Origin: a virus
Lineage: Duplodnaviria > Heunggongvirae > Uroviricota > Caudoviricetes
Length of the DNA: 64,000 nt
Strand: one strand, 5' to 3'
IMG/VR virus record: IMGVR_UViG_3300036876_000145
Span: 19,489 to 83,488 of that record
Shown here piece after piece: positions 5,850 to 52,138 of the stretch. Below the pieces are notes generated by a model. The model worked only from the letters and a program-made list of their open reading frames with translations, searched no databases and had not been told where the DNA came from. Positions within the stretch are counted from its first letter, which is position 1; the number at the start of each line of letters is the position of its first letter. The position numbers and the translations under genes were made by a program.

Positions 5850-6369
5850 GAATATCACACAGAAGCAGGCACGAGCCAATGAGGATGCGGTCTGGGCTGT
5901 CTACCCCAAAGCGACCTACTTTGGCGTTGATGCTAAGAAGAACTTTTCCCATCCCGAAAACTGTGTCTGTGAGGTATACAGATCAGACGCTCTCGACGCC
6001 CCCGTGATCGGCTCGGGCGACACTTACGAAGAAGCGTGGGCCGACGCCGTAGCAAAGTTACCCAACCCGAACCGTCACATTCCTCAACGGAGTAAATCAA
6101 ATGGGTCAACCGGACGAAAACGAAATCCAAGCACTGGTAAGCGGAGCAAACGGCTATCAGAAGTTGAAGATCTTGAAGATCTTCTTGTACTGTCTTATAT
6201 CACAATCGTATATCTCCAGGAATGGCTCAGAGATCTTGATTCAACTCAGTTTGATAAAGAAGGACTAACTCAACTAAAAGAAGCCGATGAAATTAAAGAA
6301 AGATTAAAAACAGTTCTAGAACAGCTTCAGGGTGATGCGCCGATGAATCCGCCGCAGGCTCGTGGTTGA
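5850..6369 (+). CDS. hypothetical protein
   Basis: ORF 5821-6369, start moved to MNITQKQ; basic central region. Confidence 0.4.
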
Positions 6370-6397
6370 CAAATTTTAGGTATCTTGTATCCTATTT

Positions 6398-6838
6398 ATG
6401 AAAACAAAAAAGAAAGCTAAAGCAAAAACTCAAAAAAAGGTGGTTATGGAAAAACATTTTGTAACATTTTTCAGCCCGGGTACATTTGTAGCAGAAACAA
6501 GCTGCTTATCTATTGATTCTTGGGATGTTGAAGAAGCCAAGAAAAAAGCTCGCGGGATCAAAGAACGTCATGACGCTGTACCTTATGGATTTAGGTTTTC
6601 TACTCGCAGCAGGGGAGTGGATGATTTGGACTCCAAAGAAACCAAAACAAGCGGGATGTATTACTTGGGCGGTAAGGTCGAGACTTTGAAACAAGTGAAA
6701 GCTCGCGCAACTAAAGACGATGCAATACTCGTCTCCAACATGGAATGTAACAACTGGAAGCGTATTGTTACTACCACGAATGGGTATCGATGGACTCAGC
6801 CTCTAAAAGATGAAGATAAAGTGGTGGATTGGTCTTAA
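6398..6838 (+). CDS. hypothetical protein
   Basis: 146-aa ORF with a lysine-rich N-terminus. Confidence 0.45.
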   Translation: MKTKKKAKAKTQKKVVMEKHFVTFFSPGTFVAETSCLSIDSWDVEEAKKKARGIKERHDAVPYGFRFSTRSRGVDDLDSKETKTSGMYYLGGKVETLKQVKARATKDDAILVSNMECNNWKRIVTTTNGYRWTQPLKDEDKVVDWS

Positions 6839-7416: not shown

Positions 7417-10008
7417 ATGCCTAATCTTTTACAAAAACTTACTTATTTCGACCCGGAAACCAGTAGACAATTTGTCATTGGGGATAAGGGATTCGCCTGG
7501 AAACAAGCGGTAAAATCTCCCGAAGACTCAAAAGTAACTCGTCTGGTAGCTCAATACGGCTGGGAATTGAAGTACGGTACGGATACATTTTTGCTTTTTA
7601 AGCGCCCCAAGCAAAAAGGGGAATTAAATGTACTGCGAGGTACCAAACAATGGTTTTTGGACATGGGCGGGCCGGTTTATGAAGATACCCCCGGGGGAAC
7701 GGGATTAAAGAGCCTACAGAGGGCTCTAGAGGATAACCAGATGAATATATCAAAAGCGGCTAACCCCGCTGCTACAGCTGTTAATAACGCCGCAAAAGGC
7801 ACTCCAGGATTAAATAGACGCCCAGATTACGCAGAAGCTGATTCCATTGTTGCTTTGGATGGTGGGGTTAAAACAGGAAGTACGGGTTTGCCAGCTACTT
7901 TATATGTTACGAGCGCCGATTACAAAGGCATTACTCTAGAGAAATTTTCTTTTAGCCCAAATATCGAAAAAGCTAGGATATTTCCTCCTCTTATGGCTAA
8001 AAGTTTAAGCAATCAAATCAAAGGTAGATTTGGTGTCACTTCCCACATCATTTTAGCCTATAATTATGAGGAAATGTTTAAGTCTATACTTGCTTTAAAC
8101 CCTGAATCCAAGTTTTTGATAGATAAAGAAATTACATGGGCTAAGCGGAGTCTCAAAAAACAGGATCGAGTTATTTGGTTTTTGCGCTGGATCCGCTTGG
8201 CTATCATGCAAGAACTTTATCATGCCGCTGGAGCCGCTGGATCTGGTAGACCTGCTGAACCAACATCCCCAGGCGAGAAATCCAGAGAACAGATTTATAA
8301 AGAGCGAGTAAAGAATGTTCTAGATCAATACAAAAAAGACATGTCAGCAAAAGGGGGAAATCCAGATGCTGATAGTATGAGTATAGGAGATTTATCGACT
8401 ATACATGCAAATTTAGATCACTTTTATGGTTTGAATGTACCGGAGATCAATAATTATAGTCCGACAGTAGAAACTTGGACTGATTTACGACAACGATTTT
8501 CTAGCATTGAGCAGGCTTGGGCAGAAGCAGCAAAACGAGGACTTAAACCTAAAACAGAAGATAAAGTTTTTATTAAGTTTCCCGATGGTTGGGCTTGGTG
8601 GTTTTTACCTCGCTCTTCCTGTGACCAAGAAGCTAAAGCCATGGGTCACTGCGGAAATTCCCCTTTCGCCGGTAGAGAAGGTATCGGCATACTCAGTTTA
8701 CGCAGACCAGTTAAACACGGAAAAGATTTTTTGTGGGAACCTCATCTTACATTCATTCTTCATGAAGACCCACCAGGTGCTGACAGTGGAACTTTAGGGG
8801 AAATGAAGGGTAAAGGTAATGCAAAACCTACTCCTCAATACCATCCATATATTATGAAATTATTGGAAGATCATAGAATACAAGGCGTTGGCGGCGGTGG
8901 AATCTTAGCGTCTCACAATTTTTCTTTTTCTGATCTTACCCCTGAACAACAAGCCATCGTCAATAAAATTAATCCAGGCGTAGGAATGACCATCGCAGGA
9001 TATTATAAAGAACATGGAATGGATGGAAAGCTGTTGAAAAAAATCAAAGCTATTTTGGGTTTAGAAAGTGCTACATACGACCCAAAATACGGAGTAGCGG
9101 TTGCCTCTTGGCCTAATGAAGAAGAGTTCATTAAGAAAACAGGTGACAGTGAAGCTAAGAAAGCGTGGATGTTTGTTCAGACTGGTGAACACAACTATGA
9201 CAGCCCGGATATCGATGAACTCACGGACTTGCTTAACGGAATCAATGATCCGCAAATCCATAATATTGGTTTATCCCTCACTTATGATTTTCCAGTAGAA
9301 ATGCAATCATGGTATTCAAATTTCAACCCTAATGATAAAGTTGCGGTGAAATTGGCGCTTACAGATTTATATAATGCTTACATCGCTAAAGGGCAAAAAG
9401 TTTTTGACCAGGAAGTTGACAAACTCAAAAAATATTTAACTACTCAGGAAAATGAGATGAATGAAACGGGAGGATTCGCAAATCCTGAAGTTATACAAGA
9501 GATAAAAGAAAAATTAAAGGGTTACGATCAAAATAAAGTGTGGGATGCTGTGCCTGTACTACAAAAATTGCATGCTGCATATGTGGCTGGGGGACCAAAC
9601 CAAGCAGAGGTAAGGGCAAATATTAAAAAGAAAGTCCAAGAAGGCTTAAAAGATAAAGATAGGATCAAAATCACAACAACCACCGATGGTCGTTATTTGC
9701 AACTCATGGATGAAAAGAAACTGGTAAAAGATGCCCAAGGCCACCAAGACGCTGAAGGCACGGGAGGGTATTACGATACTCCCGAATTTCGCTGGTCATT
9801 CCCCTATGATTGGGATGAGTGGAACCCCGAAAGAACAAATAAGGCTGTAGCTAAACTTTTTGGCGAACCTTCTAAAAAACCATCAAGGAATGTGAAGCAA
9901 AAAAGACTGTTTCCTGAGCCAAAAACTAATGAAGATGCCGTGCGCAAAGGCATTGCAGTGTCAAGTTTTAGGAATCCCTTATTACAAAAAAGACTCATTT
10001 TTGAGTAG
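7417..10008 (+). CDS. large hypothetical protein (863 aa)
   Basis: Long uninterrupted ORF. A GHCGNS motif but no fold recognised. Lies upstream of the alarmone hydrolase / AAA / Pup-like genes. Confidence 0.7.
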   Translation: MPNLLQKLTYFDPETSRQFVIGDKGFAWKQAVKSPEDSKVTRLVAQYGWELKYGTDTFLLFKRPKQKGELNVLRGTKQWFLDMGGPVYEDTPGGTGLKSLQRALEDNQMNISKAANPAATAVNNAAKGTPGLNRRPDYAEADSIVALDGGVKTGSTGLPATLYVTSADYKGITLEKFSFSPNIEKARIFPPLMAKSLSNQIKGRFGVTSHIILAYNYEEMFKSILALNPESKFLIDKEITWAKRSLKKQDRVIWFLRWIRLAIMQELYHAAGAAGSGRPAEPTSPGEKSREQIYKERVKNVLDQYKKDMSAKGGNPDADSMSIGDLSTIHANLDHFYGLNVPEINNYSPTVETWTDLRQRFSSIEQAWAEAAKRGLKPKTEDKVFIKFPDGWAWWFLPRSSCDQEAKAMGHCGNSPFAGREGIGILSLRRPVKHGKDFLWEPHLTFILHEDPPGADSGTLGEMKGKGNAKPTPQYHPYIMKLLEDHRIQGVGGGGILASHNFSFSDLTPEQQAIVNKINPGVGMTIAGYYKEHGMDGKLLKKIKAILGLESATYDPKYGVAVASWPNEEEFIKKTGDSEAKKAWMFVQTGEHNYDSPDIDELTDLLNGINDPQIHNIGLSLTYDFPVEMQSWYSNFNPNDKVAVKLALTDLYNAYIAKGQKVFDQEVDKLKKYLTTQENEMNETGGFANPEVIQEIKEKLKGYDQNKVWDAVPVLQKLHAAYVAGGPNQAEVRANIKKKVQEGLKDKDRIKITTTTDGRYLQLMDEKKLVKDAQGHQDAEGTGGYYDTPEFRWSFPYDWDEWNPERTNKAVAKLFGEPSKKPSRNVKQKRLFPEPKTNEDAVRKGIAVSSFRNPLLQKRLIFE

Positions 10009-10040
10009 ACAAACCCCTGCTTCAACTGTATAATAATAGC

Positions 10041-10811
10041 ATGAGTAGTTTACTCGAAATAGCTATTGAGCTGGCGCTGAAAGCACACCATGGGCAAATA
10101 GACTCGGATGGTGACCCTCACATTCTTCACAGCTTAGAGGTCATGTTTGCTGTAAAAAAAGAACTGGAATGTGCCCCCAATGAAACTCCAGATTGTTGCC
10201 TTCCCGTTTTATATGGAGCTACAAAAGAGCAACTTTTAGTAGCGGCTGTACTTCACGATGTGGTTGAAGACACTGATTTTTCTCTTGATCAGGTTCGTAA
10301 AGAATTCGGAGATGTGGTTGCAGATATCGTAGATTCCGTTACCCGACGTGAATCCGATGGAATAAAAGAATTTTATCGTGATTTTATTTATCGAGCCCGC
10401 GCGTCGAAAGGCGGAAGACTAGTTAAAATCGCAGACCTCCTCACAAATCTTAAACGCCTTCCAAATATTAAAATCGCTCACCCAAAATGGCATGACAAAC
10501 TTCAATATAAATATCACTTAGCAAAACGGGTGTTGCAGACTGAAGATGATGCTGCTTACAAGGTGGGTCAGTATACGCAGTTCGGAGGCTACGTGGTGCA
10601 GACTGAAGATGATGCTGCTTACAAGGTGGGCCAGCAGTTCGGAGGCTACGAAAAAGTGCGGCAGGTAAAGCTTTGGGAGAAGCTTTCTGGGGAGATTAGG
10701 GGTTATGACCCAAAGCAGTATTTTATTGCTGATCCCGATGGTAAACGCAAAGAAATTTCATCTGCTGAGTTTACATTCTTATTTCCTACCAAGCTACCCG
10801 AACCGAACTAG
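10041..10811 (+). CDS. small alarmone hydrolase, SpoT/Mesh1-type HD-domain (p)ppGpp hydrolase
   Basis: ALKAHHGQ...DPHILHSLEV, LHDVVEDT (HD motif) and KIADLLTNL match the RelA/SpoT hydrolase domain. Contains the internal tandem repeat VLQTEDDAAYKVGQ x2. Confidence 0.8.
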   Translation: MSSLLEIAIELALKAHHGQIDSDGDPHILHSLEVMFAVKKELECAPNETPDCCLPVLYGATKEQLLVAAVLHDVVEDTDFSLDQVRKEFGDVVADIVDSVTRRESDGIKEFYRDFIYRARASKGGRLVKIADLLTNLKRLPNIKIAHPKWHDKLQYKYHLAKRVLQTEDDAAYKVGQYTQFGGYVVQTEDDAAYKVGQQFGGYEKVRQVKLWEKLSGEIRGYDPKQYFIADPDGKRKEISSAEFTFLFPTKLPEPN

Positions 10812-13225: not shown

Positions 13226-15322
13226 ATGGGTCTTCAAGAATACACCACAGCGCTAAACGCGAAACTAGAAAAAGCACGGGACGCTTATTACAAGAAGGGC
13301 GAACCCGTGATGTCCGATGCTGAATATGACGCTCAGGAAAAAGAGTTGGCGGATATAATATCGGCTAATCCTCAATTGAAGGTGTTCGCCCCTGTACTCC
13401 ATACAGTGGGTTCCGATGTAACGGCCTCTGGAAGAGTGAAGCACAGCCGTCCCATGCTCAGCATTGAGAACAAATACACTGTTGATGACTTTGTGGAATG
13501 GGCTAAGAAAATATGGGCAGGATATCCCGACGCCAAATTCTGCTTAGAGCCAAAATTTGATGGTGTGAGCGTAGAATTAAGGTATAGGCATGGAAAATTG
13601 CATCAAGCCGTTTCCCGCGGTACGGGCAGTGAAGGAGAAGATTGCACTTTACAGGTAATGGCGATCAAATCCATTCCAAAAACAGTACCTAATAGTTTTC
13701 CAAATGTGTTTGACATTCGGGGAGAAATGGTCATGCGGAATGACACCCTTGAACGTCTCAACGCTGAGGCCCAAAAATATGGGGGTAAAATTTATCAGTC
13801 CACCCGTAATCTAACAGCGGGTACCATGAAAAAGCAAGACGCTAAAATTGTAGCTAGTCGTGACCTTGAATATAGACCTTGGGAAGTGACAGGTTCAGAT
13901 TTAAATGATAGTGGGTTTGCCCGCTTGGATATGCTTGTTGATGCGGGGTTTGTCGCTCCCTTGGGAGAACTGGTAGAAGATGAAGCTTCACTACGAGCTG
14001 TTTTAGCGAAGAAACTTAAGGAGCGCACAACTAAACTTCGTGATATTCTTTCCTTGGAAACTGATGGCGTAGTCATTAAAGTAGATTCGAATGCTTTACG
14101 CACACAGTTAGGAGTTGCTTCTAAATATACCAACTGGCAAACCTGCTTCAAACCCCAATCTGCCTCTGGTACTACGTATCTACGCAGCATCGAATGGCAG
14201 GTAGGACGAACAGGAAAATTGTCTCCTGTTGCGGAATGTGACCCCGTGATACTGGCTTCCGCGAAGGTCGAACACGCCAGTCTTAACAACATCTCCTGGA
14301 TTAAAGAAAAAGGTTTGAAACTGGGGGCAAAGGTAGAAATGCTGCGATCCGGGGATGTGATCCCTCAAATCGTTCGTGTGATTGACGAAGGGGATGATGA
14401 AATCATTCCACCAACAAAATGTCCGGAATGCGCTGGAAAAGTTGTGGAGATGGATGAGGGCGGAGTAGGCATCATTCAACATTTTTGTACCAATCAAGCA
14501 TGCCCCGGTATTCTACGGGGGTATTTGGCTTTTATTGGTAGTAGGGATGTACTAGAAATCGATGGGTTGGGTCCAGAAGCAGCAAGAACACTAGTGAAAG
14601 AGGAAGGGATCCATGATCTGGCTGGGCTTTTTAATTTTTATAATAGATGCCAAGATAAAAGACTCTCCATGGATACAAATAAAGAATTTATCGCCTATGC
14701 TCGAATGATAGGATTTGATGCCACTCTTCCCAAAATGTTGGATTCCTTAGAGAAGGCTAAAACCGCTCCTTGGGAGCGTTGGATCAAAGCTTTGGGGATT
14801 CCTATGATTGGGGAAACTCATGGTAAAGCTTTGGTGACATTTTTTAAGCTCACCCCAGAGAGCTTCAAAGATTTATGGCAAATTACCCAAAACTTGGAAG
14901 AGAACAAAATTGAGGGTATAGGGCCGCAGAAAATAAAAGCTTTATCTGAATGGGGGGCGAACCCTGACAACAAAGTTTTGTGTTTGTCATTATTCAATTT
15001 AGGTGTGCGTCCTACTCCTCCGGAAACGCCTAAAATAGTAGCTGGGGCACCTCTAAGTGGTATTATTTTCTGCATTACAGGGGAGTTTGACGAAGATAGA
15101 AACTCTCTTATCAAGAAACTTGTTAGCTTAGGGGCCGAATCTAAAACTGGTGTAACCAAAAAAATAAATCTTTTGATCGTTGGTGATGACGCGGGAAAAA
15201 CTAAGTTGACTAAAGCCGCAGAATTAGGTATAAAACAAGTAGGGAAAGATTGGCTCGTTAAAACTTTGTCCGATAGCGGCATTAAAATGTCGCAAAATAA
15301 CTTTGTTCCAGAGCAGGCGTAA
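13226..15322 (+). CDS. ligA: NAD-dependent DNA ligase
   Basis: Ia domain YYKKGEPVMSDAEYD, adenylation KxDG (EPKFDGVSVEL), OB domain, Cys4 zinc finger CPECAGKV...CTNQACPG, HhH region, C-terminal BRCT. Confidence 0.9.
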   Translation: MGLQEYTTALNAKLEKARDAYYKKGEPVMSDAEYDAQEKELADIISANPQLKVFAPVLHTVGSDVTASGRVKHSRPMLSIENKYTVDDFVEWAKKIWAGYPDAKFCLEPKFDGVSVELRYRHGKLHQAVSRGTGSEGEDCTLQVMAIKSIPKTVPNSFPNVFDIRGEMVMRNDTLERLNAEAQKYGGKIYQSTRNLTAGTMKKQDAKIVASRDLEYRPWEVTGSDLNDSGFARLDMLVDAGFVAPLGELVEDEASLRAVLAKKLKERTTKLRDILSLETDGVVIKVDSNALRTQLGVASKYTNWQTCFKPQSASGTTYLRSIEWQVGRTGKLSPVAECDPVILASAKVEHASLNNISWIKEKGLKLGAKVEMLRSGDVIPQIVRVIDEGDDEIIPPTKCPECAGKVVEMDEGGVGIIQHFCTNQACPGILRGYLAFIGSRDVLEIDGLGPEAARTLVKEEGIHDLAGLFNFYNRCQDKRLSMDTNKEFIAYARMIGFDATLPKMLDSLEKAKTAPWERWIKALGIPMIGETHGKALVTFFKLTPESFKDLWQITQNLEENKIEGIGPQKIKALSEWGANPDNKVLCLSLFNLGVRPTPPETPKIVAGAPLSGIIFCITGEFDEDRNSLIKKLVSLGAESKTGVTKKINLLIVGDDAGKTKLTKAAELGIKQVGKDWLVKTLSDSGIKMSQNNFVPEQA

Positions 15323-21690: not shown

Positions 21691-22553
21691 GCGCACTTTA
21701 TCCATACAGTTACGGTGATACTCTCCTAAAGATTGATCATGTGTACCTAAGCGCGTCCGCGGATGGGAATTCCCTGCTAACGAAGCCTATGCCTGGAAGC
21801 CGCGCTATTTTGACGGATGTCTGTGCAGAAATCAAGAAGATCAAACGCCCTAATCAAATTCAAGGGCAGATGGTAGGGTTATTGGGGCCTTCCGGACGGG
21901 GAAAAACACAGCTATTTCGTATTATTTCAGGTCTTAATAAACCCACATCCGGACAAGTTTTGATAAACGGGAAAGCGGTTCCCGTGGTCGCCGGAGAGGT
22001 AGGAGTAGTAGCACAAGATTATCCGTTGTTTGCGCATCGCACAGTTATGGGTAATTTAACGTTGGCGGCAGAGAAAAAAGAAAAAGATGCAAAAACCGCT
22101 CATGAAAAAATCATGACCTTTCTTAATGAATTCGGCATTGCAGATAAAATAAATTTGTACCCTGCTCAATTATCAGGGGGGCAAAAACAAAGAGTAGCAA
22201 TAATCCAGCAAATTTTATCATCATCATATTTCTTACTTATGGACGAACCTTTTTCAGGTCTCGATATTATCATGGAAGATAAGATGTTACAACTGATCAT
22301 GAAGATAGCCAATATGGATGATTTAAACTGTGTGATAGTTGTAACCCACGATGTAACAGCAGCGGCATCAGTGTGTGACCATATTTGGGCTTTGGGGTGG
22401 ACCCCAGGTGGGGATAAATCTTCTAGCATAGTAAAGACATATGATTTGATTGAACGGGGATTGTGCTGGGAACAATGGCAAAATATGGCGGCATTGCGCC
22501 CCGCTTTGACAGATTTTATTAAAGAGGTAAAAAACGATTTCTACACACTGTGA
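21687..22553 (+). CDS. ABC transporter ATP-binding protein
   Basis: Walker A GPSGRGKTQ, ABC signature LSGGQKQRVAI, Walker B LLMDEP, H-loop VVTHD. Confidence 0.8.
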   Translation: MSALYPYSYGDTLLKIDHVYLSASADGNSLLTKPMPGSRAILTDVCAEIKKIKRPNQIQGQMVGLLGPSGRGKTQLFRIISGLNKPTSGQVLINGKAVPVVAGEVGVVAQDYPLFAHRTVMGNLTLAAEKKEKDAKTAHEKIMTFLNEFGIADKINLYPAQLSGGQKQRVAIIQQILSSSYFLLMDEPFSGLDIIMEDKMLQLIMKIANMDDLNCVIVVTHDVTAAASVCDHIWALGWTPGGDKSSSIVKTYDLIERGLCWEQWQNMAALRPALTDFIKEVKNDFYTL

Positions 22554-22632
22554 AATTTTTGTGGTATACTAAAACAGGAGTAAATAAAATGGCATCTAAA
22601 AAGTCAGTAAAACCCAAGAGGAGAAGTAAGTC

Positions 22633-22896
22633 ATGGCATATGTAATTGCTGAGCCATGCATAGGGGTAAAGGATACCGCATGCGTGGACTCTTGCCCTGT
22701 AGACTGCATACACCCCAAGAAGGGGACTCCTGAGTTTGATCAGAATCCCCAACTTTACATTGATCCTGTGGAGTGTATTGACTGCGGAGCGTGTGTTCCT
22801 GTGTGTCCTGTATCCGCTATCTTTCCAGTAGATGATTTACCCGAACAATGGAAGCATTTTACCGCTATCAACGCAAAGTATTTTGGGAGAGAATAA
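22633..22896 (+). CDS. ferredoxin, 7Fe (3Fe-4S plus 4Fe-4S) FdxA type
   Basis: CIGVKDTACVDSCPVDCI and CIDCGACVPVCP cluster motifs. Confidence 0.8.
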   Translation: MAYVIAEPCIGVKDTACVDSCPVDCIHPKKGTPEFDQNPQLYIDPVECIDCGACVPVCPVSAIFPVDDLPEQWKHFTAINAKYFGRE

Positions 22897-23542: not shown

Positions 23543-24049
23543 ATGTGTCTCGCTCGCATACTTGAAAATCATGAAGATCAGCCAATCCCAGGTCCTATAA
23601 AAGCTTGGAAGATTGTCTTACGGGGTAAGAAAGCACTCTCCTGTTTTAAGAACAATTCTATAACGATCACCTGGCAAACAGATACGCCAGGTGATAGAAT
23701 CGCTTCTTGGGAGTGGGATGAAAAAGGCTTGACCGTCGTCCTCGAAATTCGCGCCGGAACCGGCGGCGACGAGGCTACGCTCTTCGTAGGTGGTTGGAAA
23801 ACTTATAAAACAGGATTCCATACTTACTTCACTAAGGAAGCAGCTCAAGAAGCTTTGAATTCTTGGAACAAGAATTCGGATGATGCATATGGTACATGTA
23901 AAATTATTCCCGTGGAGATAATGGATATCACAACTATTGGAACTGATGGTAGTGTGTCAGACTCTTGCGATCTTAAAAATTATGTCTCGCAAAAGATCAG
24001 ACTATATCCGATAAAAATGAAAGCGAAGCCCAAAACCAAGCGAAAATAG
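23543..24049 (+). CDS. MCL-family small protein (paralog 3)
   Basis: MCLARI..., AWKIV, GFHTYF, IPVEIMDITTIGTDG, NYVSQKIRLYP plus a basic tail; has a ~50-aa insertion. Confidence 0.55.
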   Translation: MCLARILENHEDQPIPGPIKAWKIVLRGKKALSCFKNNSITITWQTDTPGDRIASWEWDEKGLTVVLEIRAGTGGDEATLFVGGWKTYKTGFHTYFTKEAAQEALNSWNKNSDDAYGTCKIIPVEIMDITTIGTDGSVSDSCDLKNYVSQKIRLYPIKMKAKPKTKRK

Positions 24050-24133
24050 TTGCAATATGTTGATTTTAAAAGGTTTAAAAATACACAAAATAGGTGTTCT
24101 CAATGTATACTATAGGTGGAGGGGACACCGCTA

Positions 24134-24844
24134 ATGGAACTCAGCGTAGCAGAAGTGCTTGCCAAGAAACTGATGCACGAATTCAATCTCTTCCCGCGCT
24201 GCTGGAGATTCGAGTTTGATAATTCTAAAAGTCGCTTCGGATGCTGTCATACTAGAAAAAAATTGATTACTCTCAGCCGTCATATTGTTCAACTCAACTC
24301 CCAAATAGATGTTGAAGATACCATCCGTCACGAAATCGCCCATGCTCTGGTAACAGAAGATAAATTAACTTTCCACGCAAAAAACCCTTTTTCCAGTGAT
24401 TTCGGGCGCAGAAGCATATCGCGTAGAGACATCCACGGGGCGGATTGGAAAGCAAAGTGCCTTATTACCGGTGCTAAACCGGAGCGCTGCTACGATGGCG
24501 CTGTTGTTGTAGCACCCAAAGGCAACTGGACAGCTACTTGCCCGAATTGTGGTAAGGTGGTTCATTATCATCGTCGTTCCACTAAAAGTAGCCCCACCGC
24601 ATGCTATGAATGCTGCAAAAATTTCAATCACGGCAGATGGTCAGAAAAGTTCATTTTTATCTATCGACACAGAGATTCGATTGGAGAGCACATCCCCGCT
24701 AATGCACCCAAACCAGCACCACAGACTCAAACGCCTGACCACAGGGCTGCAATTGAGCGGATGAAGGAGCAGATACGACTAGCTGAAAAACAGGAGATTT
24801 TAGACCGTATCATAGCATTAGAAACCCAATTGACCAGGAATTAA
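24134..24844 (+). CDS. SprT-like zinc metalloprotease-domain protein
   Basis: HEIAHALV zincin motif; Cys pairs CPNCGK...CYECCKNF; start placed at MELSV after a ggtggagggg Shine-Dalgarno. Confidence 0.65.
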   Translation: MELSVAEVLAKKLMHEFNLFPRCWRFEFDNSKSRFGCCHTRKKLITLSRHIVQLNSQIDVEDTIRHEIAHALVTEDKLTFHAKNPFSSDFGRRSISRRDIHGADWKAKCLITGAKPERCYDGAVVVAPKGNWTATCPNCGKVVHYHRRSTKSSPTACYECCKNFNHGRWSEKFIFIYRHRDSIGEHIPANAPKPAPQTQTPDHRAAIERMKEQIRLAEKQEILDRIIALETQLTRN

Positions 24845-25156: not shown

Positions 25157-25162
25157 AATAAG

Positions 25163-25309
25163 TCTTGACAAATTTTCCAACTATCAGTATTATATAAAGA
25201 GTAGTTGGTTCGGAACGAGCCATCAGGCGTTAACGTAGAAGTATTAAATTCAAGCGTAGCCTGAGAATCTTTATGTGGGGGAGAACCCGCATTTAAAAAA
25301 GAAGTTCAA
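25163..25309 (+). repeat. ~145-bp direct repeat copy 1 (promoter plus conserved leader)
   Basis: Near-identical to 35663-35808. Confidence 0.8.
25166..25194 (+). promoter_or_regulatory. sigma70-type promoter (TTGACA-17-TATTAT) heading tRNA cluster 1; part of the 145-bp repeat
   Basis: cTTGACAaattttccaactatcagTATTATat, near-consensus. Confidence 0.55.
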
Positions 25310-37748: not shown

Positions 37749-37822
37749 ATTTGGGTCAGGAGGTCGGCGGTCTCGTACCCGATCTTCCCGTATACTGTAC
37801 GCCTTCGGGCTACAGGCAGATG

Positions 37823-37860
37823 ACGGGTGTAGCTCAGTAGTAGAGCACCTGATCTAATTT
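37823..37860 (+). ncRNA. 5' tRNA-like half (acceptor, D-arm and anticodon stem, loop containing CTA) with no matching 3' half
   Basis: acgggtg-ta-gctcagtagtagagc-a-cctga-tctaatt; followed by a hairpin ttgagcgag...ctcgctcaa instead of a 3' stem. Confidence 0.25.
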
Positions 37861-40295: not shown

Positions 40296-40341
40296 GTATT
40301 TATTGAAGGCTACAAAATAAGCATTGAAGGTCTTGCGAAAA
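40296..40341 (+). repeat. 46-bp direct repeat copy 1
   Basis: gaaggctacaaaataagcattgaaggtcttgcgaaaaccaagctgg, identical to 63955-64000 at the window end. Confidence 0.7.
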
Positions 40342-40612
40342 CCAAGCTGGCTAAATCAATGCTGGATGTTGCATTCGGGAAATAAGAATTAAGAATTCTC
40401 GACGCCTTGGGATACATGGAGTCGTTAAACGACTGCGGACAGTGTGTAAGTCTGGCGAAAGCCAGCAGCGCTGGTTGAAACAGTTAAGGGCGGCGTTAGC
40501 CGCCTAGAATCTCCCGCCTTTAGGCGTGGGAGTATCAATATGATGGTAATTCTTAACAACACGCTCACCACGCTTCACCTCAGACCTAAACGCTAAATTT
40601 CCGCGTTCAAAA
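40342..40612 (+). ncRNA. non-coding structured region with multiple GNRA-capped hairpins
   Basis: No ORF. Hairpins agtcgtt-aa-acgact, ctggc-GAAA-gccag, gggcggc-gtta-gccgcc, ctcccgcc...ggcgtgggag. Lies between the 46-bp repeat and tRNA-Arg(TCT). Confidence 0.3.
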
Positions 40613-41461: not shown

Positions 41462-42778
41462 ATGATGAAAAAAGAAATGACCCTTTTGGGTCTAGTCGCC
41501 GCTACGTATTTTATGGTAAGCGGAGGCCCGTACGGTCTAGAAGACCTAATTGCTCAAACTGGTTACGGATGGGGAATACTCATTCTTTGCTTAGTGCCCT
41601 TCCTGTGGGCACTGCCAACCGCTATGATGGTTGGTGAACTCGCCTCTGCGATACCGAATCGCGGGGGTTTTTATATTTGGGTGCAACGTGCCCTTGGAAA
41701 ATTTTGGGGATTCCAGGAAGCTTGGCTTTCATTAGCGGCTTCCATATTTGATATGGGAATCTACCCGCTACTTTTTATTTCTTACCTGGGTGTATTGGCT
41801 CCAAGTTTCACCGCAGGGTGGCACGGCTCGCTTATAGCAACGGCTCTAATCGCTGTTTGCGTATTGTGGAACCTTCGGGGTGCCAAAGCTGTAGGAAACG
41901 GCTCTGTGGCGTTAGGAGCCCTTATGGTGAGCCCTTTTGTGATTATCACCCTAGCAGCTCTCCGACACGCCCATCTGACCCATGTTACGGGTCATCCTCA
42001 CGCCGTCAGTCTTATGGGCGGTATTATGGTCGCTATGTGGAACTTCATGGGTTGGGATAACGCCAGCACCATAGCCACAGAAGTCAAAAAACCTCAACGA
42101 ACCTACCCCATCGCCATGATGGTGACTATGCTGTTGATTGTTGGAAGCTATATTCTCCCCGTAGCAGCGTCTTGGTATCTGGGAGTACCCCTGTCTGCCT
42201 GGTCAACAGGGAGTTGGGCGACTATTGGTGAAATCATCGCGGGTTCTTGGGTACGAGACGCCATTGTACTGGGTGGAATGATCAGTGCAGCGGGGATGTT
42301 GAACTCCCTCATGATGAGCTATTCTCGTATTCCCCCAGCGCTGGCTGAAGATCATTATCTGCCTCGCATATTCACAAAAATAAATGCAGTGTCAGTTCCC
42401 ATGATAGCTTTATTTGCCTTGGCGACAGTTTGGGCAACAGCGTTCGGTTTGAATTTTGACCGTCTGGTGATGCTGGATATTTTACTTTATGGAACGAGTC
42501 TTATTCTGGAGTTTATCGCTTTAGTGGTATTGCGTTGGAAAGAACCAGATTTGCCTCGACCTTTTCGTGTGCCTGGGGGAAAATTGGGCGCTATCTTGGT
42601 AGGAGTTTGCCCAACGATACTTCTCTTCGCGGCCGGTATTTTTGGGGATCATAACGGACTATTGCTAGGCTTAGGCATGATTCTATCCGGGGTGGGTGCT
42701 TGGTGTGGAATTCATGGATTTCGTGCCGCTAAATATGAAAAAATCGCTCCCACTTTCTCAACTACCACGATCCCCTAA
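41462..42778 (+). CDS. APC-superfamily amino acid/polyamine permease
   Basis: 12-TM pattern; N-terminal GGPYGLEDLI...GELASAIPNRGGFYIWVQRALG typical of amino acid permeases. Confidence 0.85.
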   Translation: MMKKEMTLLGLVAATYFMVSGGPYGLEDLIAQTGYGWGILILCLVPFLWALPTAMMVGELASAIPNRGGFYIWVQRALGKFWGFQEAWLSLAASIFDMGIYPLLFISYLGVLAPSFTAGWHGSLIATALIAVCVLWNLRGAKAVGNGSVALGALMVSPFVIITLAALRHAHLTHVTGHPHAVSLMGGIMVAMWNFMGWDNASTIATEVKKPQRTYPIAMMVTMLLIVGSYILPVAASWYLGVPLSAWSTGSWATIGEIIAGSWVRDAIVLGGMISAAGMLNSLMMSYSRIPPALAEDHYLPRIFTKINAVSVPMIALFALATVWATAFGLNFDRLVMLDILLYGTSLILEFIALVVLRWKEPDLPRPFRVPGGKLGAILVGVCPTILLFAAGIFGDHNGLLLGLGMILSGVGAWCGIHGFRAAKYEKIAPTFSTTTIP

Positions 42779-44037: not shown

Positions 44038-44543
44038 ACTATCAAAATAAACTTCAAAAAATACAAAAAGAGTTTGTGCTGGGAATAAAAGATAAATTCA
44101 CCTGTATGACTAAATTTGAGCAAGTTTTATGGGAATACGGTCTTCTACCAAAACAAGAAGAGTTAGATAGGGAAATGTCTAATGAACATTTTTCTCGCTT
44201 GATACAAATGGCTATGGAACATACAGATACTCATTCAGATCGAGATCCTGAAAATAGTGAAGAATTGGATAATGAATACGCAGCGGCTTTTTATTCTGTA
44301 AGAGTTTGCCCAATTTGTCATATTACGCAATCCCGTCCATTAGTTGGTAGCGTGAGTGATTTAGCTCGAAAAATAACTGCATTAAACCCTCCTCGTTGTG
44401 AACGCTGCGCCATTGATTGGATGAAAAAACATCTAGAGAATTCCCCAAAAGGTGAAAATGTAGATTTGATAAAACCACTTAGCAAAGAAGAGAAAAAATT
44501 TTTTGATGAGTATGAGAAGGAAATGGAAGACTTTGAGGTTTAG
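44034..44543 (+). CDS. hypothetical zinc-binding protein
   Basis: 169 aa; CPICH...CERCA. Confidence 0.45.
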   Translation: MNYQNKLQKIQKEFVLGIKDKFTCMTKFEQVLWEYGLLPKQEELDREMSNEHFSRLIQMAMEHTDTHSDRDPENSEELDNEYAAAFYSVRVCPICHITQSRPLVGSVSDLARKITALNPPRCERCAIDWMKKHLENSPKGENVDLIKPLSKEEKKFFDEYEKEMEDFEV

Positions 44544-45232
44544 TGGTATTATTATGGTATATGAATATGAACGGCTCGACGAGCGCAATCCCGCCGCTTT
44601 GCGGTGGGTTAGCGAGTGCCTTGGTTCTCGACGTCGCAGTTATGGCGGACCCACAGAATGGTACCGTTCAACATCTCGGATTCAACCCAGCGGCAACCAA
44701 GTACAACTGGAGACGCAGGAGAGCCAACCTCAAGAGTGCAGGCAAGCGTCGTACACTGCGCCAACTGAGCCGTAAGCAATCACGACGTACAACACATGAG
44801 AATCACATCGTGTCTAAGCAAATAGTTTCCTATGCCGTAAAGCATCACCGCGCAATTGCCGTAGAAAACCTTGAGACAGTTCGTAAGCCGAACAGCAAGA
44901 TTCGGAAGTACGTCGAGAAGTCTCAATGGTCTTTCTATCAGTTGTTGTCGTTCCTCAAGTACAAAGCGGCTTTGCACGGCGTTATCATCGCGGAAGTCAA
45001 TCCTGCATACACCTCGCAGAATTGCTCTCGCTGTGGACAGCGGAACACTCCAAACGGCAAGAAGTACGTTTGCGAGCATTGCGGACACACCGACCATAGA
45101 GATGCTAACGCGGCATTCAACATCGCCAAGCGCGGTATTGAGTTCCTATCTATGGGCGGCACTCACGACTCAGAGCGCGTGAGCGGGGCTGTATTGGTGA
45201 CGCCCTATTCTGGAGGACCAGCATATGCTTAG
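44543..45232 (+). pseudogene. IS200/IS605-family TnpB (OrfB) remnant: C-terminal RuvC-II/III plus zinc finger only
   Basis: IAVENLE (RuvC-II), CSRCGQ...CEHCGHTDHRDANAAFNIAKRG (zinc finger plus RuvC-III). The N-terminal ~170 aa and the RuvC-I GIDLG Asp are absent (HLGFNP). GC-rich. Confidence 0.55.
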
Positions 45233-49660: not shown

Positions 49661-49802
49661 CCGAATCCAGTCAACACCCACTAATTCACATGCCACCTTG
49701 TAGGGCCCCGTACATACGACCTAAGCACAAGTTTACTCTGAGCATCAAAACTTTCCCGGTTATAAGTTGTTGATTTTAAATACTTTAAAAATATCCATTT
49801 TC

Positions 49803-49835
49803 AGTGTTTCCGATGTATACTAGGGATGGAGGCGA
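49803..49835 (+). promoter_or_regulatory. TGTATACTAGGG-type promoter-like element (copy A of a 40-bp duplicated block)
   Basis: atccattttcagtgtttccgatgtatactaggga is identical to 51907-51939. Extended -10-like TGTATACT sits about 10 nt before the ATG. Confidence 0.4.
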
Positions 49836-49836
49836 T

Positions 49837-50742
49837 ATGACAAAGAAAAGTAGCTCTGATGTGGCGGCTGATTTGAAAAGTGCAATGGGTTCCGCTGCCG
49901 ATGCAAAGACTATTCTCGATACACCAGATAAGAAAACCGCCAGCCGTTCCACATGGAAGGGTTATATTTCCGCTTTTGGCGTTATGCTGATTCCCGCCGC
50001 AACCCTGAAAGCCACTGATGTTGATGCTATCGAAACCCACATGTACCATAGCGCTGCTTGTCCGAATCGTTTGGTGCAGAAATACACCTGCTCTTGCTGC
50101 GACACCGAAGTCCCCAACGCTCGTACAAACGCCCTTAAGGGTGTAGAAGTGGGGGACAAAGTCATTACTCTCACTCAAGCGGAATTAGACGCTCAGAAGC
50201 CCACTAGTGACAAAATTCTCAAAGTCACCGAGTTTGTTCCCGCTGATGCGATTGATGTTACCTACTACGAATCCAGCGAATACATCGCCGCTGATAAGGG
50301 TGGGGAAAAAGCCTTCGCCACATTCCAGCAAGCCTTGGCGCAAACGGGGCGTATCGCTATCGGCACCTTCGTAAGCCGCGGTCACCAATACACTGTTGCA
50401 CTTCGCCCCAAGGGTCAGTATGGTATCGTCATGTCTTATTTGTTCGCGGAATATGAAGTTCGCAACTGCGGCAAGTGGACGCCTGTTGTTGTCAATCCGG
50501 CAGAAGTTGATTTGGTCAAGCAGCTTATGACTGAAACCGAACTGGCAAAAGAAGTATTCACCCCCGCCGCCTATGACCCCTATCTCTCTGGCGTGCGCAA
50601 GATGATTGCTGCTAAGGCAAATGGTACGGAAGTTTGCACCCCGGCTGCGGACGAAGTTCCCAAGGCTACGGATGATTTGTTGGCGGCGTTGAAAGCTACC
50701 CTGGAGCAGCAAAAGGCAAAGGCTGCAAAGGCTGGTGTATAA
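49837..50742 (+). CDS. ku: Ku protein (non-homologous end-joining DNA end-binding)
   Basis: WKGYISAFGVMLIPAATL, YYESSEYIAADKGGEKAFATFQQALAQTGRIAIGTFVSRGHQYTVALRP, YLFAEYEVR match bacterial Ku (WSGAISFGLVNVPVKLY, YYLAPDKGGEKAYALLREAL...AIARFV...LAALRP, YADEVR). A Cys-rich insert HMYHSAACPNRLVQKYTCSCCD. Confidence 0.85.
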   Translation: MTKKSSSDVAADLKSAMGSAADAKTILDTPDKKTASRSTWKGYISAFGVMLIPAATLKATDVDAIETHMYHSAACPNRLVQKYTCSCCDTEVPNARTNALKGVEVGDKVITLTQAELDAQKPTSDKILKVTEFVPADAIDVTYYESSEYIAADKGGEKAFATFQQALAQTGRIAIGTFVSRGHQYTVALRPKGQYGIVMSYLFAEYEVRNCGKWTPVVVNPAEVDLVKQLMTETELAKEVFTPAAYDPYLSGVRKMIAAKANGTEVCTPAADEVPKATDDLLAALKATLEQQKAKAAKAGV

Positions 50743-51332: not shown

Positions 51333-51516
51333 TGCCCCAACAATGGGAGAGATTACCCCCAGATGAAGAAGCAGGAACCCCTGCTTTGTTTCCCCCAGAA
51401 TCAGACCTTTGCAGAGAATGTGACGGCACCGGAGTGCTGTATGGACAGCTCTGTAAAAAATGTGGCGGCAAAGGGGAAATTTAGCCAAAACCCGTGTTTT
51501 GGATGTATACTAAGGT

Positions 51517-51888
51517 ATGAGCCCATCTCAGGAACGAGTCTATTTGGACGCTGAGCGAGAAGAAGGCATCGCTGAACTTCGTAACGACCCCGCGTACAAT
51601 TTTGCGGAGCCAGAGTGCATAGTTCCCTCAAAATATCATCAATACTTCGTTGACTACGGGCGCTGCTTGTATGACAAGCTCCCGCTTCGCCAAGAAATGC
51701 ACGCGTTCAATCACTACAAAAAATTTCACTGGCACAAGTACCCTCGATACCTTGCGTACCAGGGCGGTACTTGGCATGAAGTTTCTATAGGTGCTTATTT
51801 GGCTGCGAAGTTTGGTCATTTAATTCCCGTCGCTATCGTCCACGATCCTAAAAAACCGAAAAATAAACGTGCAAAGGCTGTAAAATAA
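51517..51888 (+). CDS. hypothetical protein
   Basis: 123-aa ORF preceded by a tgtatactaagg motif. Confidence 0.45.
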   Translation: MSPSQERVYLDAEREEGIAELRNDPAYNFAEPECIVPSKYHQYFVDYGRCLYDKLPLRQEMHAFNHYKKFHWHKYPRYLAYQGGTWHEVSIGAYLAAKFGHLIPVAIVHDPKKPKNKRAKAVK

Positions 51889-51937
51889 AAGGGTTAGAAA
51901 ATATCCATTTTCAGTGTTTCCGATGTATACTAGGGAT

Positions 51938-52138
51938 ATGGCAAAGAAAAAAAAGAAAAAAAGTAGCTCTGACATGGCGGCTGATTTGAAAAGCGCATTG
52001 CAGTCGTTAAACAAGATGATTGGCTATGCAAAATACGTCGAAGAAATGGATTGGTGGTATTTCAGGGAAGAAGTGCAACCGGGTTGGAAAAATGATTTAG
52101 CGGAAGCCGAAGCTATTGCGGCAAAGTTACACACTTAA
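51938..52138 (+). CDS. small protein carrying a duplicated Ku N-terminus
   Basis: MAKKKKKKSSSDMAADLKSALQS parallels the Ku start MTKKSSSDVAADLKSAMGS. The upstream 40 bp are identical to the Ku promoter region. The rest is unrelated. Confidence 0.45.
   Translation: MAKKKKKKSSSDMAADLKSALQSLNKMIGYAKYVEEMDWWYFREEVQPGWKNDLAEAEAIAAKLHT

Follow-up and report, generated by a model that had tools for sequence, protein, structure and literature searches.

A recurrent promoter cassette of probable sigma-70 type, placed just ahead of start codons in a large soil phage and its relatives

Late promoters of phage T4 consist of a lone TATAAATA box served by gp55, T7-type promoters extend over about 20 contiguous conserved bases, and UP elements are read by host alpha subunits. 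T4 early promoters are read by the host sigma-70 and combine an UP element, a -35 box, a TGn and a -10 box with extra phage-specific consensus positions; in the middle promoters the -35 box is replaced by an activator box, which is centred at -30 and separated from the -10 box by 12 +/- 1 nt, and rII expression is prereplicative, with PrIIB2 counted among the middle promoters (PMC2988021). T4-like phages also harbor PeSLs (promoter-early stem-loops), which are composites of a terminator and an early promoter (PMC2839356, PMC4122927). Outside the T4 group, leaderless (TA-led) genes show a TANNNT hexamer about 12 bp before the start codon and are predicted to account for 9.7-19.4% of the genes in Acidobacteria (PMC3160421), and the extended -10 consensus of the E. 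coli sigma-S type reads TCTATACTTAA (PMC3367168). The literature on jumbo-phage promoter motifs and on the raw motif presented here gave nothing specific to this sequence; the closest match among described systems is the T4-type early promoter cassette. Based on counts, geometry and conservation, we consider it probable that TGTATACTA, a motif that recurs in the 64-kb stretch of phage DNA analyzed here (referred to as the window), is the -10 element of a two-block promoter of the sigma-70 family, most likely read by the host primary sigma factor, with transcription starting at the Shine-Dalgarno (SD) sequence or at the ATG. The kind of promoter is in itself sound but fairly ordinary, and it reveals no new kind of mechanism.

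Essentially all genes of the window lie on the + strand, 21 tRNA genes are present and the GC content is about 44%. Pfam hits comprise Thg1, PTH2, an HD domain, an AAA ATPase, an NAD-dependent ligase, an OmpA-domain protein, an ABC ATPase, ferredoxin, a SprT-like protein, a vault-shoulder protein, RlaP, HNH, an amino-acid permease, a TnpB-like protein, MetAP, Ku, endonuclease VII, a C5-methylase and SNF2; Rfam returned tRNAs only. No near-identical match turned up when phage and plasmid collections were searched with 12-24 kb of the window, a protein search with Ku against phages gave only matches of 26-27%, from mycobacteriophages, and no relatives of the SprT-like protein were found in IMG/VR. 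Proteins identical to those of the window are nevertheless encoded on more than 100 metagenome contigs of up to 153-178 kb. Since the contigs of relatives reach 458 kb, the phage behind the window would be large or huge. Acidobacteriota are probably the host phylum: the permease encoded at 41462-42778 is 48-57% identical to proteins from metagenome-assembled genomes of Acidobacteriota (Terriglobia), which make up nearly the whole hit list, and this points to a host-derived auxiliary gene. Several of the Acidobacteriota permease orthologues carry TGnTATATT 13-16 nt before an ATG devoid of SD, which suggests that very short leaders occur in the host phylum. Two further genes of the window deserve mention. 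One (30702-33155) encodes a protein of about 820 residues with the shoulder domain and the repeat domains of the major vault protein. The other, a TnpB-like ORF (44543-45232) with a Cas12f1-like TNB domain, apparently misses its N-terminal part, and a full-length OrfB_IS605/TNB gene lies outside the window, about 2.5 kb 5' of its first position (L015, 7526-8575).

Exact TGTATACTA was found five times in the window, at 24104, 33242, 49814, 51504 and 51924, always on the + strand; 0.20 occurrences were expected, and 100 shuffles all gave fewer than five. A sixth site, at 22563, reads GGTATACTA. The shorter GTATACT was counted 10 times on the + strand (2.1 expected) and 3 times on the - strand (2.3 expected). 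All six sites are intergenic and on the coding strand, just 5' of start codons (TATACT lies 5-22 nt from them), although the gaps, as delimited by gene calls from our own heuristic, make up only about 12% of the window. The first-pass annotation of this DNA had described such a motif ahead of at least seven ORFs, and its recurrence is borne out by these counts. Six of the sites are in register; the partial match announced at 30395 corresponds to a GTATAC (30403-30408) lying out of register between SD and ATG, in a gap that does contain a promoter with the same architecture (TTGCAG, 16 nt, TG-TAGAAT, 6 nt, GGAG). Of the positions proposed at that time, 24091-24120 does contain the motif (24104-24112) and the others were displaced by 1-12 nt (49826 for 49814, 51930 for 51924). 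The motif had also been written with a terminal (G/A)GG; the corresponding 12-mer, TGTATACTARGG, fits three sites and not the remaining ones. The six sites should not be read as six independent events. A single duplication of about 100 nt (49788-49887 and 51898-52000, 84% identity) accounts for the pair 49814 and 51924; it includes the first ~17 Ku codons and has fused the Ku N-terminus to an unrelated ORF. In addition, 24104 and 49814 have a 77-nt cassette in common (73% identity). The putative promoters of the window are the following:

22542..22591, + strand: promoter P1, with TACACA (22542-22547), a 17-nt spacer, G-TATACT (22564-22570), 6 nt, GGAG (22577-22580) and ATG at 22589
24049..24136, + strand: promoter cassette P2, 5' of the SprT-like gene (Pfam), with the upstream block GTTGATTTTAAA and an A-tract; core (+ strand) of TACACA (24082-24087), an 18-nt spacer, TG-TATACT (24104-24111), 6 nt, GGAGG (24118-24122) and ATG at 24134
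33181..33259, + strand: terminator hairpin with a T-tract (33181-33209), then promoter P3; core (+ strand) of TAGCCA (33222-33227), a 16-nt spacer, TG-TATACT (33242-33249), 7 nt and ATG at 33257
49759..49839, + strand: promoter cassette P4, 5' of Ku, with GTTGATTTTAAA, an A-tract and TATCCA (49792-49797); core (+ strand) continuing with an 18-nt spacer, TG-TATACT (49814-49821), 6 nt, GGAGG (49828-49832) and ATG at 49837
51482..51519, + strand: promoter P5, with TAGCCA (51482-51487), an 18-nt spacer, TG-TATACT (51504-51511), 5 nt and ATG at 51517
51898..52000, + strand: promoter P6, a duplicate of P4 together with the first ~17 Ku codons, with TATCCA (51902-51907) and an 18-nt spacer; core (+ strand) continuing with TG-TATACT (51924-51931), 6 nt and ATG at 51938
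30366..30413, + strand: promoter of the same layout with another -10, with TTGCAG (30366-30371), a 16-nt spacer and TG-TAGAAT (30386-30393); distal part (+ strand) of 6 nt, GGAG (30400-30403) and ATG at 30411
10006..10043, + strand: same architecture, at the HD-domain gene, with TAGACA (10006-10011), a 17-nt spacer, TG-TATAAT (10027-10034), 6 nt and ATG at 10041
6366..6400, + strand: site of the same layout, with TTGACA (6366-6371), a 16-nt spacer, TG-TATCCT (6386-6393), 4 nt and ATG at 6398

A -35-like hexamer preceded by an A-tract is found 16-18 nt 5' of TATACT at all six window sites: TACACA at 22542 and 24082, TAGCCA at 33222 and 51482, and TATCCA at 49792 and 51902. The spacing is 18 nt at four of these sites and 16 and 17 nt at the other two. 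A block further upstream, G(C/T)TGAT(T), and the A-tract accompany the hexamer. The claim that no -35 is conserved was therefore wrong. The reading of the motif as an extended -10 (TGnTATACT) fails as well: the canonical TGn form was rejected, as the TG adjoins the hexamer directly (-14/-13) and relatives have TG, CG or GG there, leaving the G at -13 as the one constant base. What is found is thus a TAnnnT -10 box with a TTGACA-related -35 box at 16-19 nt, in intergenic DNA on the coding strand, as in sigma-70 promoters. The same frame accommodates other -10 boxes (TATAAT, TATATT, TATCAT and TATCCT) in the window and its relatives.

Downstream of the -10 box, two arrangements are observed. At 22565, 24106 and 49816, TATACT is followed after 6 nt by GGAG, a distance kept in most relatives too, and the 6-nt sequences differ; at 51506, 51926 and 33244, it is followed after 5-7 nt by ATG. 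In the model that we propose, transcription would start about 7 nt past the -10 box, on the first G of the SD or, for leaderless transcripts, on the A of the ATG, a placement deduced from the usual distance between -10 and +1. The predicted leaders are 0-16 nt long (12 nt at 22589, 16 nt at 24134, 9 nt at 49837, leaderless elsewhere), in support of the very short leaders that had been anticipated, and are consistent with an Acidobacteriota host. At the ORFs starting at 33257, 51517, 10041 and 6398, an SD is lacking and the first possible ATG comes only 4-7 nt after the -10 box; for the ORF of P5, a single open codon precedes ATG 51517. Because they have neither an SD nor an earlier usable start codon, the ORFs at 33257, 51517 and 10041 are candidates for leaderless translation. 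All four resemble TA-led genes in having a -10 hexamer 4-7 nt before an SD-less first ATG. The resemblance does not extend to the whole set, since half of the TGTATACTA sites would put the start on GGAG, with the SD at the very 5' end of the mRNA. P1 presents a peculiarity of its own: ATG 22589 opens an 18-codon upstream ORF (MASKKSVKPKRRSKSWHM, 22589-22645) with its own SD, which overlaps the ferredoxin start (22633) in a different reading frame.

The layout is conserved beyond the window. Relatives were recruited through Ku homologues (41-77% Ku identity) on contigs of GC 0.54-0.65 and up to 458 kb; many of their instances therefore share descent and are not independent. The consensus was built from 26 distinct instances, TATACT being present at the six window sites and at 20 distinct sites in relatives, where the layout reads T(G/A)G(A/C)C(A/G), 18 nt, G-TATACT, 6 nt, GGAGG. 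The upstream regions of Ku in relatives diverge at most positions, including the spacer, and five features are kept: [T/C/G]G-TATACT, in which only the G at -13 is constant; TGGAC(A/G), TAGCC(A/G) or CGGCCA exactly 18 nt upstream in nearly all relatives; TTTT directly behind this hexamer; an ATAAAG-like tract; and, at about -63, a block A-A-G-n-T-G-y-T-G-A-T-T. Instances gathered with GTATACT have the G at -13 by construction, and sites located by the -35 box alone carry it too. The 197 kb examined from relatives contain 21 copies of GTATACT on the + strand and two on the - strand, where a first-order Markov model predicts 1.8 and 2.2, respectively. The cassette is not restricted to Ku: it also precedes rIIA in five relatives, a gene for a Zn-finger-like protein of about 85 residues in four, and other genes, and in the rIIA-carrying relatives rIIA is part of an rIIA-rIIB-Ku block. 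None of the window ORFs is homologous to an ORF 3' of the additional cassettes in relatives. Scanning IMG/VR with a composite pattern gave 18 matches, about 12 of them cassette-like, with GGAGGGAAC followed by ATG, on phage contigs of 20-332 kb and GC 0.54-0.62; some 5 matches inside coding sequence on contigs of GC 0.36-0.38 were left out as likely due to chance. Strain-level copies of the window (L001-L005, L012-L017) are uninformative on conservation, and their extra 20-kb flanks contained no further clear cassette. Being enriched, biased towards the coding strand and conserved 5' of orthologous genes, the element is characteristic of this phage and its relatives, as had been proposed. In two relatives, annotated starts may also need correction: L020 has TATACT, 6 nt and ATG within a called 172-aa gene (10989), and in L018 the called PTH2 start (9179) adjoins the -10 box, with a second ATG 6 nt past it.

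Proximity to start codons, together with the fixed 6-nt distance to GGAG, could also suggest an action at the RNA level, the motif being a translational operator, a processing site or a structured leader beside the ribosome-binding site. We regard this as highly improbable. In L008 and L010, a leader of about 50 nt with a hairpin places the motif about 60 nt from the start codon and the -35/-10 geometry is intact; the cassette is thus tied to a promoter frame and not to the start codon, and would act at the DNA level. If transcription starts where predicted, the motif lies outside the mRNA altogether. The six sites, moreover, have no common fold (z-scores from -2.0 to +1.1, with differing structures), and RNA structure was rejected on that ground.

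Two DNA-level alternatives are very unlikely: an operator for a regulator recognizing the GTATAC palindrome, and a promoter for a T7-like single-subunit RNA polymerase. GTATAC is indeed a 6-bp palindrome, with an imperfect extension into the flanks at 49814 (TCC...GGA). At the other sites the flanks are asymmetric, with 0-1 of 5 positions keeping the palindromy, and a palindromic operator was rejected. Similarly, ACTATAGG at 24108 (site 24104) resembles the T7 promoter core, a likeness that has to be set against the variable sequence of the 17-18-nt spacer and the lack of any RNA polymerase gene in the window, for which reasons the T7-like promoter was rejected too.

The first-pass annotation had itself favored a -10-only promoter of the T4 late type, read by a gp55-like phage sigma factor and devoid of a -35. 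The cassette does have an AT-rich, phage-specific conserved box in the -10 region near start codons, and within the window alone its -35 hexamers match TTGACA weakly, at 3-4 of 6 positions. Nonetheless, this model retains very little probability: the window and all relatives keep the hexamer at a fixed spacing, G-TATACT differs from TATAAATA, and no gp55-like gene was found in the DNA read. The gene classes served also differ, the nameable ones being rIIA, Ku, the SprT-like gene and ferredoxin and none being structural (several downstream ORFs are without annotation). The T4 late promoter was rejected on the sequence of the box and the presence of a -35.

The comparison with T4 early promoters is far closer. 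Both are multi-part elements with an upstream A-rich element, a -35 and a -10, and with a consensus tighter and more idiosyncratic than that of host promoters; in a large phage, both are repeated many times along the coding strand, and both serve non-structural genes. Relatives of the window phage even carry T4-type rIIA and rIIB, with the cassette directly 5' of rIIA. Differences are nevertheless apparent: the cassette has an 18-nt spacer and, in place of TGn, a G at -13 next to the hexamer; its -10 is TATACT instead of TATAAT, its -35 is TGGACA or TAGCCA, and the start is predicted at the SD or the ATG. In its full form, the element would be an expression cassette of 70-90 bp. Its -35 hexamer, T(G/A)G(A/C)C(A/G), often has TTTT directly behind it and adjoins an A-rich tract (ATAAAG or TTAAAAA) on the 5' side, with the block A-A-G-n-T-G-y-T-G-A-T-T further upstream, at about -63; on the 3' side come the spacer of 18 nt, G-TATACT (G at -13, TATACT from -12 to -7) and, 6 nt further, GGAGG(GAAC). 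A bacterial RNA polymerase holoenzyme would bind it, most likely with the host primary sigma factor, as is the case for strong early promoters in other large phages.

Which sigma factor reads the cassette is a separate question, in which we favor the host primary sigma. This choice is supported by the near-consensus geometry, the UP-like A-tract, the non-structural nature of the genes and the T4 early precedent. The same promoter could conceivably define a phage-specific middle class, read by a phage-encoded sigma or by a host sigma remodelled by the phage (sigma appropriation), with the canonical TTGACA-17-TATTAT and TGGTATTAT promoters as the true host-read early class; we hold this to be possible but rather unlikely. 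In its favor, the G at -13 and the C at -8 are invariant and non-consensus, T is never found at position 2 of the -35 and the 18-nt spacer is strict, all of which is tighter than in a generic housekeeping promoter, and the cassette is conserved across phages with GC from 0.44 to 0.65. The relatives' coding strand is enriched for TATACT and not for TATAAT, TATATT or TATTAT. In 397 kb of DNA from the likely host phylum (L021-L100, Acidobacteriota), GTATACT occurs twice on both strands together against 5.6 expected, and the visible -10 boxes there are TGnTATATT. The window, finally, also holds TTGACA-17-TATTAT (5' of tRNA arrays) and TGGTATTAT sites. Against a phage reader, the relatives' consensus TGGACA-18-TATACT matches sigma-70 at 10 of 12 positions (TGGACA alone at 5 of 6) and an ordinary holoenzyme should bind it, and the A-tract resembles an UP element. 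The 18-nt distance from hexamer to -10 departs from the 12 +/- 1 nt of the MotA box, on which basis a MotA/AsiA middle promoter was rejected (PMC2988021). Genes for sigma factors, anti-sigma factors or RNA polymerase were not found in the 64 kb of the window, nor do any appear in the precomputed Pfam results that cover the called genes of most fetched loci; Pfam scans of all ~109 window ORFs gave no sigma factor, no gp55-like gene and no RNA polymerase gene, in a phage of which about 84 kb were read and for which the longest contigs listed with window proteins measure 153 and 178 kb. A broader proposal, that TGGAC(A/G), 18 nt, G-TATACT, 6 nt, GGAGG constitutes the dedicated transcription programme of a clade of large-to-huge soil phages (up to 458 kb) probably infecting Acidobacteriota, with an undescribed phage sigma or sigma-remodelling factor as reader and with mRNAs starting at the SD or the start codon, appears doubtful to us.

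The sigma-S-type consensus TCTATACTTAA has the same core hexamer, TATACT. It differs from the cassette by a C at -13 in place of G, and the cassette conserves a -35. To our knowledge RpoS is confined to Proteobacteria, which are probably not the host phylum of the window phage.

Besides the cassette, a further promoter-like motif, different from TGTATACTA, recurs in the window. It is TGGTATTAT, a canonical TGn extended -10 present on the + strand at 15058, 26348, 44544, 53087 and 63049 (5 against 0.49 expected), these being true TGnTATTAT sites; TATTAT itself is found 39 times on the + strand, with 18.6 expected. A direct repeat of 124 nt (25158-25281 and 35669-35792, 97% identity) contains a consensus TTGACA-17-TATTAT promoter, and each copy is located 5' of a tRNA gene cluster.

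Some copies of the cassette follow terminators and one marks a duplication and fusion, and this is reminiscent of the PeSLs, where a repeated composite of terminator and promoter is linked to the duplication or swap of adjacent ORFs. In the window, the hairpin at 33181-33209 precedes a promoter and, separately, a copy of the Ku promoter is fused to a 66-aa ORF (51898-52138); terminator tails are also found 5' of the Ku cassettes of relatives. Unlike in PeSLs, the stem-loop accompanies some copies only, there is no sequence similarity between the two elements, and recombination is deduced here from a single duplication. In the 66-aa ORF, the first ~23 residues come from the Ku N-terminus, with a match to Ku over residues 7-23 only (82% identity over 17 aa), the rest being unrelated, and P6 lacks the 9-nt GGAGGCGAT present in P4. 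From the sequence, this ORF arose by duplication of the Ku promoter and the 5' coding end.

For an uncultivated clade of large soil phages, these data provide a usable promoter model (a -35, an 18-nt spacer, G-TATACT and a start at the SD or ATG), which may help to annotate transcription units and to correct start codons, as for the leaderless candidates and L020 10989. The cassette can serve to recognize members of the clade in metagenomes, its copies can be flagged as possible recombination points, and for Acidobacteriota, where genetic tools are few, it provides compact expression cassettes. Two other elements of the window were recorded. An exact direct repeat of 46 nt (40305-40350 and 63955-64000) may be longer, because its second copy reaches the window end. 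At about 37828-37853, GGGTGTAGCTCAGTAGTAGAGCACCT resembles the 5' half of a tRNA, although neither ARAGORN nor Rfam made a call, and a GTATACT is located at 37790, 38 nt 5' of it.
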